Origin: Escherichia phage vB_Eco_T-01
Sequence record: PQ438391.1
Direction: 5' to 3' (one strand)
Length of the DNA: 64,000 nucleotides
The notes beneath the pieces are model-generated. The model saw nothing but the letters and a program-made list of their open reading frames with translations, did no database searches and was not told the origin of the DNA. Positions within the stretch are counted from its first letter, which is position 1. Each line of letters opens with the position of its first letter. Position numbers and translations under genes: made by a program. This document shows, in pieces, positions 49,506 through 51,498 of the stretch.

Positions 49506-50044
49506 TGAGAACATTTTTAACTGGCCCTTATCTATCCCTGATGAATGCTTTTACACACCATTCTGACGCTAGAGTAGAAGAAATTTGTAAAAACGAATAT
49601 ATCCCGCCATTTGAAGACTTACTTAAGCAGTATTGCACACTTCGACTAGATGGTGGACGTCAATCCGGTAAATCAACTGCAGTAACTAATTTTGCCGCTA
49701 ATTGGTTGTATGATGGCGGAACAGTTATTGTTCTTTCTAATACTTCAGCTTACGCTAAAATTTCTGCAAATAACATTAAAAAGGAATTTTCGCGTTATTC
49801 TAATGATGATATACGCTTTCGTTTATTTACTGATTCTGTGCGCAGTTTTATTGGTAATAAAGGAAGCAAGTTCAGAGGTTTATCGCTTTCGCGAATTTTG
49901 TATATAATTGATGAGCCTGTCAAATCTCCTGATATGGATAAGATTTATAATGTCCATATTGACACTGTACACTACTGCTGTAATAGTAAATGTTGCATTG
50001 GTGGTATTACTCGTCCACAGTTTTTCGTAATCGGAATGCAATGA
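49506..50044 (+). CDS. P-loop NTPase-like protein with Cys-rich C-terminus
   Basis: Walker A 'GGRQSGKST'; C-terminal 'HYCCNSKCCIGG'; start at SD-preceded ATG 49506. Confidence 0.5.
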
Positions 50045-50370
50045 TGACAGACACTCAGCTTTTCGAATATCTTTATTTTTCGCCAAAAACTATTAAAAAT
50101 AAATTGGTGAATCATTTTGAAATTTTGGCAAATAACAACATTTTGAGCGAATTTTATCCCAAGCAATACAAATTACAAAAAGGCGTATTCAAAGGATGCA
50201 GAGTTTTGTGTACGGCTCCTAATGCACGGTTAATGAATAAAATTCCATATTTTACCATGGAATTTATTGATGGTCCTTTTAAAGGACTAATCACACAGAG
50301 TTTAATGGCATATGATTCTGAGCCATTTTTAATTAAAGAACAATCTTGGATAAATTTATTTTCTAATTGA
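50041..50370 (+). CDS. hypothetical protein
   Basis: 109 aa from ATG 50041 overlapping previous stop. Confidence 0.5.
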
Positions 50371-50377
50371 GGTTTAT

Positions 50378-50740
50378 ATGAAAGCATATCAAATTCTTGA
50401 AGGCACACACAAAGGCACTATTTATTTTGAAGATGGTATTCAAGCACGAATTATCGTTTCTAAAACCTTTAAAGAGGACTCTTTTGTAGACCCAGAAATT
50501 TTCTATGGTTTGCATGCCCGTGAAATTGAAATTGAGCCACAGCCTACAGTTAAAATTGAAGGCGGTCAACACCTGAACGTTAACGTTCTGCGTCGCGAAA
50601 CTCTGGAAGATGCAGTTAAGCATCCGGAAAAATATCCGCAGCTGACCATCCGTGTATCCGGTTATGCAGTTCGCTTTAACTCTCTGACTCCGGAACAGCA
50701 GCGCGACGTTATCGCTCGTACCTTCACCGAGAGTTTGTAA
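50378..50740 (+). CDS. autonomous glycyl-radical cofactor (GrcA/YfiD-like; T4 Y06I equivalent)
   Basis: C-terminal '[61 protein letters not shown]' with glycyl-radical motif RVSGYA. Confidence 0.85.
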
Positions 50741-50961
50741 TGGCAAAGATAATTATTGAAGGTTCTAAAGATGTTCTAAATGCTTTCGCCGAATGGTTTA
50801 GTAATTCAGGCGAACAGCAATTTAATGAAGCATGGAACATGGGTGATATTAATGGAATTTATCCTACGACAGAAATTTCTGTTCAAGGATATGGCATTCA
50901 TGAACCTATTCGTTTAGTTGAATATGATTTATGCACTGGTGAGGAAGTCAAATATGATTGA
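50740..50961 (+). CDS. hypothetical protein
   Basis: 73 aa, ATGA overlap with previous gene. Confidence 0.5.
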   Translation: MAKIIIEGSKDVLNAFAEWFSNSGEQQFNEAWNMGDINGIYPTTEISVQGYGIHEPIRLVEYDLCTGEEVKYD

Positions 50962-51220
50962 AGATATTAAAGGTTATAAGCCACATACCGACGAAAAAAT
51001 CGGTAAAGTAAATGCTATTAAAGACGCTGAAGTTCGTTTAGGACTTATCTTTGATGCTTTATACGATGAATTTTGGGAAGCATTTGATAGCTGTGAAGAT
51101 GATGAACTCGCGAAGAATTACGCCGAAAGCCTCGATCAGTTAACTATTGCTAAAACGAAACTCAAAGAAGCAAGTATGTGGGCTTGCCGTGCTGTGTTCC
51201 AACCAGAGGAAAAATATTAA
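50954..51220 (+). CDS. hypothetical small acidic protein (vs.4-position; candidate Acb2-like sponge, unverified)
   Basis: 88 aa from SD-preceded ATG 50954; assignment is by gene order relative to regB/denV only. Confidence 0.35.
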
Positions 51221-51498
51221 TGGCTCAATTAAGTGCAGGGTTTGGTTATGAATATTATACTGCACCTCGTCGTGTATCTGCCGCTCCTAAGAAAATTCAA
51301 AGTCTTGATGACTTCCAAGAAGTAATTCGTAATGCTTTCCAGGACTATGCGCGTTATCTTAAAGAAGATTCACAGGACTGTCTCGAAGAAGATGAAATTG
51401 CTTACTATGCGCAGCGTCTTGAACAGCTCAAAAATCTACATGAGGTTCGTGCAGAAGTTTCAAAGTCTATGAATAAATTGATTAGATTTAAAGAATAA
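51220..51498 (+). CDS. hypothetical protein
   Basis: 92 aa from ATG 51220 (track ORF 51178). Confidence 0.5.

Follow-up and report, generated by a model that had tools for sequence, protein, structure and literature searches.

A T4-type vs.8–vs.3 early-gene cassette with predicted Acb2 and TadIV-1 sponges in the genome of Escherichia phage vB_Eco_T-01

The anti-CBASS protein Acb2 of phage T4, encoded by the gene vs.4, is a hexamer with three bound molecules of cGAMP (PMC10449767). Its Kd for 3',3'-cGAMP is ~84 nM, and other cyclic dinucleotides are bound as well, but cA3 and cAAG are not; the exclusion of these two ligands was ascribed to the residues Y37, A57, L60, D61 and T64, as well as T68, which replaces T74 (PMC10312549). 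Acb2 of phage PaMx33 possesses a second pocket for cA3 and cAAG, which is absent from Acb2 of the T4 type (PMC10312549). The function of T4 Acb2 is lost in the variant Y8A and in the Panoptes escaper F82C (PMC12657218). Among the pocket residues, Y11, involved in stacking, and K26, involved in salt bridges, in the PaMx33 protein correspond to Y8 and K23 of T4. The presence of Acb2 together with Acb1 in T4 has already been discussed (PMC10312549, PMC12657218, PMC12265669).

To overcome type IV Thoeris, T4 requires the gene vs.3, and this gene also suffices for it; its product was named TadIV-1 (PMC13243611). TadIV-1 sequesters N7-cADPR and is a dimer of two-helix protomers, the disordered N-terminal loop of which makes up the pocket, and N7-cADPR binding by the T4 protein requires R17, R18 and K24 (PMC13243611). 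Long homologues of TadIV-1 (~90 aa; >80 aa) are active, while short ones (~70 aa) are inactive (PMC13243611). The structure of TadIV-1, PDB 9WIW, was obtained for the UPEC07 homologue (Chen et al., Nat Commun 2026; PMC13243611).

The window analyzed here is a stretch of 64,000 nucleotides of Escherichia phage vB_Eco_T-01 (PQ438391.1), which represents a Tequatrovirus (T4-like) genome in the orientation of early transcription. Six small ORFs in the interval 49505–51498 follow the order and carry the names vs.8, vs.7, vs.6, vs.5, vs.4 and vs.3, as annotated in phages ime09 and T4, and the flanking ORFs are those of T4 lysozyme e, nudE, denV, regB, vs.1, vs and tk.4. The region of 3.7 kb around the cassette shares 97.8% nucleotide identity with Escherichia phages slur03, slur08 and slur14, and at least 80% of it is covered in 450 phage records, chiefly phages of Escherichia, Shigella and Klebsiella. 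These comparisons identify the interval as orthologous to the early-gene cassette of T4, vs.8-vs.7-vs.6-vs.5-vs.4-vs.3, in a phage closely related to slur03, RB3 and ime09.

Between denV and regB, the first-pass annotation had counted six genes; in fact there are seven, since it left out the gene ip4 (48878–49351, plus strand), encoding an internal virion protein (Pfam DUF7412, E=1e-95; phrog_3155), which is annotated as Ip4 in ime09. This gene is located between denV and vs.8 and is followed by a spacer of 153 nt and then by vs.8.

The description of the six ORFs themselves as small and co-oriented proved correct. All are located on the plus strand and have clean starts and stops, with purine-rich motifs resembling the Shine–Dalgarno sequence upstream of all six start codons. 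Each ORF has a match to a PHROG family, with E-values of 4e-40 or better, except for the weaker value of 6e-32 for vs.4. The exact protein sequences of five of the six products are already present in public databases. The six ORFs are real and not due to chance. Coupling of all of them via ATGA or TAATG, as had been proposed, was found at three of the five junctions, namely, vs.8/vs.7 (-4 nt, ATGA), vs.6/vs.5 (-1 nt, TAATG) and vs.4/vs.3 (-1 nt, TAATG), while vs.5 and vs.4 have a longer overlap (-8 nt, ATGATTGA) and vs.7 and vs.6 are separated by a short gap (+7 nt). A search of all six proteins against PADLOC and NCBIfam gave nothing meaningful except for GrcA.

The gene vs.4 (50954–51220, plus strand) encodes a protein of 88 aa, predicted to be the anti-CBASS cyclic-dinucleotide sponge Acb2. 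This assignment had previously been suggested by gene order alone; comparison with the T4 vs genes and Acb2 structures confirmed it, since the protein matches PDB 7UQ2 (T4 Vs.4) with E=4e-53 and is identical to T4 Vs.4 in 83 of 88 residues (94.3%). It scores 71 bits against Pfam PF24729 (Acb2_Tad1_hairpin), for which the cut-off is 27. Its exact sequence is present in 178 public contigs, including many Tequatrovirus isolates, and is named in UniRef as 'Acb2/Tad1 hairpin domain-containing protein'. In addition to the same position in the cassette and the same length, the protein shares with T4 Acb2 (7UQ2; Jenson et al. 2023; Huiting et al. 2023) the residues Y8, K23 and F82 and the residues excluding cA3, namely, Y37, A57, L60, D61, T64 and T68. 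The two proteins differ by five substitutions, E13D, L44F, N46S, C50D and F52L, four of which are located within residues 44–52 and none of which affects a residue reported as functional. Acb2 of PaMx33 (PDB 8H2J, 8IXZ) belongs to the same PF24729 family, but its sequence match to Vs.4 of the window is weak (E ~0.09); the alignment includes the counterparts of Y11 and K26.

The product of 50954–51220 is thus the orthologue of T4 Vs.4/Acb2, for which binding and anti-CBASS activity are expected by analogy with T4. With 94% identity to T4 Acb2, it would form a homohexamer with three bound cyclic dinucleotides and have nanomolar affinity for cGAMP. In this hexamer, 3',3'-cGAMP and other cyclic dinucleotides would be trapped where the N-terminal regions of two paired protomers face each other, via stacking on Y8 and salt bridges with K23, and CBASS effectors, such as CapV, would thereby stay under the activation threshold. 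Similar to T4 Acb2, Vs.4 should not bind cyclic trinucleotides, which would be left to the nuclease Acb1.

The gene 57B (38833–39288, plus strand), encoding Acb1, a predicted 2H-phosphoesterase degrading the CBASS signal, lies 12 kb upstream of the cassette, outside the interval initially described. As in T4 57B/Acb1 (PDB 7T26; E=4e-62), the features of a 2H phosphoesterase, including both HxT/S motifs, HSTICYS and HITLSY, are present in its translation. In contrast to the sponges, which sequester their ligands, Acb1 cleaves the signal enzymatically, and its gene is distant from the cassette. The earlier suggestion that 57B and the cassette could provide two independent anti-CBASS genes is borne out by the matches of both proteins to the respective structures, and the phage is predicted to carry two mechanistically independent anti-CBASS genes, acb1 and acb2.

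The gene vs.3 (51220–51498, plus strand) encodes a protein of 92 aa, which corresponds to the long form of TadIV-1, a predicted sponge of N7-cADPR acting against type IV Thoeris. The first-pass annotation had placed it among four unknowns of the block and thus overlooked a characterized sponge (PMC13243611). A profile of Vs.3 homologues matches PDB 9WIW with E=2e-58. Vs.3 resembles T4 Vs.3/TadIV-1 in position, in its length of 92 aa and in sequence, with 89 of 92 residues identical (96.7%), and retains R17, R18 and K24; the differences are the substitutions V21A, V36I and T64A. The N-terminal loop of the UPEC07 protein in 9WIW is nine residues longer than that of Vs.3 of the window. In the AlphaFold2 model of the monomer, which has a mean pLDDT of only 61.5, residues 1–28 are unstructured (pLDDT below 50 for residues 1–22), and helices 29–53 and 57–91 form a hairpin. 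This predicted topology of a disordered N-terminus and a helical hairpin agrees with the description of the TadIV-1 crystal structure.

Vs.3 of the window is thus identified by its sequence as TadIV-1 in the long active form, the activity being attributed from the T4 and UPEC07 orthologues. It would act as a helical-hairpin dimer, the flexible N-terminal loop of which, with R17, R18 and K24, sequesters N7-cADPR and blocks the type IV Thoeris effector, a caspase-like protein. Since vs.3 encodes a characterized sponge and adjoins acb2, the cassette holds two adjacent sponges directed against different immune systems. The presence of the tadIV-1 gene does not guarantee the phenotype, because phage T2 remains sensitive to type IV Thoeris despite a functional TadIV-1 homologue (PMC13243611).

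The gene vs.6 (50378–50740, plus strand) encodes Y06I, a protein of 120 aa belonging to autonomous glycyl radical cofactors of the GrcA/YfiD type, with the radical glycine G95 in the motif RVSGY; the initial recognition of a GrcA-like gene in the block was thereby upheld. The protein is identical to T4 Vs.6 (Y06I) in 119 of 120 residues and scores 66.8 bits against PF01228 (Gly_radical), the cut-off being 22.2. It matches E. coli GrcA/YfiD (PDB 6OWR) with E=9e-42, and 61 C-terminal residues, including RVSGY, are identical, while the N-terminal half of Vs.6 is phage-specific. Because of this N-terminal half, Vs.6 scores below the cut-off of the NCBIfam GrcA equivalog TIGR04365 (153.3 vs 170 bits). 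At the nucleotide level, the 3'-terminal 185 nt have a GC content of 50% and share 96.8% identity with grcA in each of 5,426 E. coli genomes, while the 5' half has a GC content of 35% and no host match. Such a contrast is characteristic of a module of host origin. According to PMC8683613, which cites Wagner et al. 2001, Y06I and YfiD are the two proteins shown by experiment to serve as spare parts for pyruvate formate-lyase cleaved by O2. Vs.6, activated by the host pyruvate formate-lyase activase, would accordingly be expected to restore the oxygen-cleaved enzyme.

The gene vs.8 (49505–50044, plus strand) encodes a protein of 179 aa, a stand-alone P-loop NTPase of the RecA1-like (ASCE) type. 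Its start had been placed at 49506, but the ATG is located at 49505, and the N-terminus MRTFL is retained in homologues down to 40% identity. The protein contains the Walker A motif GGRQSGKS (residues 50–57; GxxxxGK[ST]), the Walker B motif LYIIDE (residues 132–137; hhhhDE) and a RecA-like core, which are the attributes of ASCE P-loop proteins, and both Walker A (LDGGRQSGK) and Walker B (ILYIIDEP) are invariant in the family. The AlphaFold2 model is good (pLDDT 81.6, pTM 0.83) and comprises a single domain. Matches to Pfam helicase and terminase families were all under the cut-offs, and a PDB sequence search gave only chance-level matches. Identity of Vs.8 to the RecA1 domain of SF2 helicases and to the ATPase domain of large terminases, such as T4 gp17 (2O0H), is only 12–15%, and Vs.8 has neither the second RecA-like lobe nor the nuclease domain. 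As a single domain of 179 aa, it is therefore neither a helicase nor a terminase, and it would function as a single-domain RecA1-like ATPase.

The earlier description of this product as a P-loop protein with a Cys-rich tail is right as to the P-loop and the presence of cysteines (residues 158, 159, 163 and 164), but the tail is not a shared feature of the family. A zinc-binding function of the tail was considered and rejected: homologues outside Tequatrovirus lack the cysteines, and the segment has a pLDDT below 50. A Pfam match of the tail to Conotoxin was under the cut-off. In T4, the annotated Vs.8 is longer, with 219 aa, owing to an 8-bp insertion, which fuses an upstream ORF of 33 codons with vs.8 in frame. 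In the DNA alignment of the window, T4 and ime09, this upstream ORF is located at 49393–49494 (plus strand), within the spacer between ip4 and vs.8.

The genes vs.7 (50041–50370, plus strand; 109 aa) and vs.5 (50740–50961, plus strand; 73 aa) encode two small proteins that the first-pass annotation had counted among the four unknowns. No matches to either protein were found in Pfam, NCBIfam and PADLOC, and a PDB sequence search gave only chance-level matches. Vs.7 (phrog_2049, E=3e-54) was found only in Straboviridae, is present in 922 phage records and is identical to T4 Vs.7 in 108 of 109 residues. Vs.5 (phrog_1986, E=1e-43, full length) is likewise confined to Straboviridae, with 987 phage records and 986 at a coverage of at least 80%; an exhaustive search detected only six clusters among 1.84 billion representatives, and a word-indexed search gave five matches. 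Conservation of both proteins reaches down to ~34–45% identity, and both are small Straboviridae-specific proteins. A candidate fusion partner of Vs.5, an FG-GAP-like repeat protein of 895 aa representing one of the six clusters, was judged spurious, sharing only the motif WF.N.G.Q.F.E. In the T4 reference, vs.5 carries a deletion of 1 nt after codon 17, resulting in an aberrant product of 58 aa, while in the window and in ime09 the gene lacks this deletion, encodes the intact protein of 73 aa and overlaps acb2 by 8 nt.

Taken together, these results are best explained by an orthologue of the T4 vs.8–vs.3 cassette with the sponges Acb2 and TadIV-1, the GrcA-like protein Vs.6 and the ATPase Vs.8, and this explanation is very probably correct; the analysis established how far the sequences agree, which residues are retained and which folds are predicted, while binding and anti-defense activity are carried over from the T4 and UPEC07 orthologues. 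The five substitutions in Acb2 of the window could shift or abolish its ligand spectrum, for example, toward binding of 3'cADPR or toward evasion of the Panoptes decoy 2',3'-c-di-AMP. The clustering of four of them at residues 44–52 is in line with this, as is the variation in spectrum among Acb2 homologues, some of which bind cA3 and some 3'cADPR (PMC10312549, PMC12393519), and Panoptes is known to select against Acb2 function (PMC12657218). However, Y8, K23, F82 and all six residues responsible for the exclusion of cA3 are unchanged, and the allele, 94% identical to T4, is common and evidently maintained in 178 contigs, so that a changed spectrum is extremely improbable. It is also very unlikely that Vs.3 and Vs.4 arose as tandem paralogues, by duplication of a single two-helix sponge followed by divergence and respecialization. 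Their genes are adjacent, the proteins are of similar size, and each is a hairpin of two helices in which the ligand is bound by an N-terminal segment; a two-helix core is common to Acb2, sequestin and TadIV-1 (PMC13243611), and a single pairwise BLASTP comparison gave a local match of 19 aa with E=0.006. This match is not supported by a comparison of profiles, which gave a probability of 1.8%, by Pfam, where Vs.3 has no match to PF24729, or by Foldseek, where a search of the Vs.3 model against PDB found nothing, and the paralogy was rejected. Moreover, the oligomeric states differ, TadIV-1 being a dimer and Acb2 a hexamer, as do the pockets, and the authors of the TadIV-1 study regard it as structurally distinct (PMC13243611).

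Another reading of the cassette extends counter-defense to Vs.5, Vs.7 and Vs.8, so that it would represent a small anti-defense island instead of a mixed bag of genes. In favor of this are the co-orientation and translational coupling of the three genes with those of two proven sponges, the small size, accessory nature and restriction to Straboviridae of the three proteins, and the intact ATPase site of Vs.8. On the other hand, no homology of the three proteins to known anti-defense families was found in Pfam, PHROG, NCBIfam, PADLOC and PDB, Vs.6 of the same cassette is metabolic, so the neighborhood is not purely anti-defense, and when Vs.3–Vs.8 from T4 were each expressed singly against type IV Thoeris, only Vs.3 worked (Chen et al., PMC13243611). 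Since the T4 versions were used in those experiments, intact Vs.5 was presumably outside the assay. On this balance, an anti-defense island is possible but rather unlikely, and the more specific proposal of a counter-defense role for intact Vs.5 of 73 aa, and perhaps also for Vs.7 and the stand-alone ATPase Vs.8, in co-expression with the two sponges, is doubtful. If Vs.5 does have such a role, the frameshift after codon 17 in the T4 reference allele would explain why screens based on T4 have missed it.

With the cassette read as the T4 orthologue, everything identified in it has already been published for T4 and its relatives. The phage carries the standard T-even arsenal, in which Acb1 and Acb2 are directed against CBASS and TadIV-1 is directed against type IV Thoeris; the functional residues retained in these three proteins are useful for annotation and host-range prediction. 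Resistance to many CBASS systems and to type IV Thoeris would be expected, along with sensitivity to Panoptes, as Acb2 triggers the latter. Since vs.5 is frameshifted in the common T4 reference and intact in most relatives, screens of the cassette need an allele other than that of T4.

As for the regulatory elements around the cassette, a conserved RNA element in the spacer between ip4 and vs.8 was considered and rejected, since Rfam gave nothing relevant and the fold was not significant (z=-0.41). In the same spacer (49352–49504), a consensus scan of the plus strand for the cassette promoter revealed no sigma-70-like site, and no MotA box was seen by eye. Downstream of vs.3, a putative early promoter of regB of the sigma-70 type, TTTACT-17-TATAAT with an extended TG and 10 of 12 matches to the consensus, is located at 51502–51530 (plus strand), and this consensus match marks the downstream boundary of the cassette.

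The gene vs.6 (50378-50740) is a chimera at the DNA level, the two parts of which differ in GC content and in their match to the host. The 3' 185 nt (50556-50740) have a GC content of 50% and share 96.8% nucleotide identity with E. coli grcA, found in all complete E. coli genomes searched (5,426 of 5,426), while the 5' 178 nt have a GC content of 35% and no host match. Accordingly, this difference in sequence between the two parts points to a host origin, probably relatively recent, of the glycyl-radical module of vs.6.

An intact vs.5 ORF of 73 aa (50740-50961) is present in the phage vB_Eco_T-01, in the annotated T4-like phage ime09 and in approximately 986 other records. 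In the T4 reference locus (L002, 4382-4558), a 1-nt deletion in vs.5 causes a frameshift after codon 17, giving a product of 58 aa; therefore, the 'Vs.5' of T4-based assays is an aberrant protein. Vs.5 is matched by PHROG 17468, 163 positions long, across the first 77 positions of the latter. In the protein collection clustered at 90% identity, the 73-aa Vs.5 is grouped with the 88-aa Acb2, and the 109-aa Vs.7 with Vs.8 proteins of 179-195 aa, which suggests that overlapping neighbours are fused in some public gene calls, via frameshifts or miscalls.

Upstream of vs.8, a conserved ORF of 33 codons stops at TAG in the window phage and ime09, and in both phages vs.8 starts with MRTFL. An 8-bp insertion in the T4 reference (L002 5790-5913, corresponding to 49393-49504 of the window) joins this ORF in frame to vs.8, the resulting fusion being 219 aa long.

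The internal-protein-style N-terminus MK[TS][YF]xEF(I/L)xE, which in the T4 internal proteins is the capsid-targeting sequence, opens five ORFs of the window, namely, 39359-39598, 42389-42862, 42984-43547, 48112-48393 and ip4 (48878-49351). The phage differs from T4 in the repertoire and placement of internal proteins: neither ipII nor ipIII lies between e and denV, a 93-aa ORF precedes denV, and ip4 follows it.

A putative early-type promoter with an extended -10 element, TTTACT-17-TGgTATAAT, was recognized by consensus match upstream of regB (51502-51557); the Shine-Dalgarno region of regB itself, within the same interval, contains GGAG, the RegB cleavage motif. Shortly 3' of regB are located vs.1 (52027-52572), the product of which resembles SLT lytic transglycosylases (PF01464, 25 bits), and tk.4 (52909-53388), encoding a macro-domain protein (PF01661, 33 bits). 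The macro domain of tk.4 adjoins counter-defence genes related to ADP-ribose and may merit a closer look.
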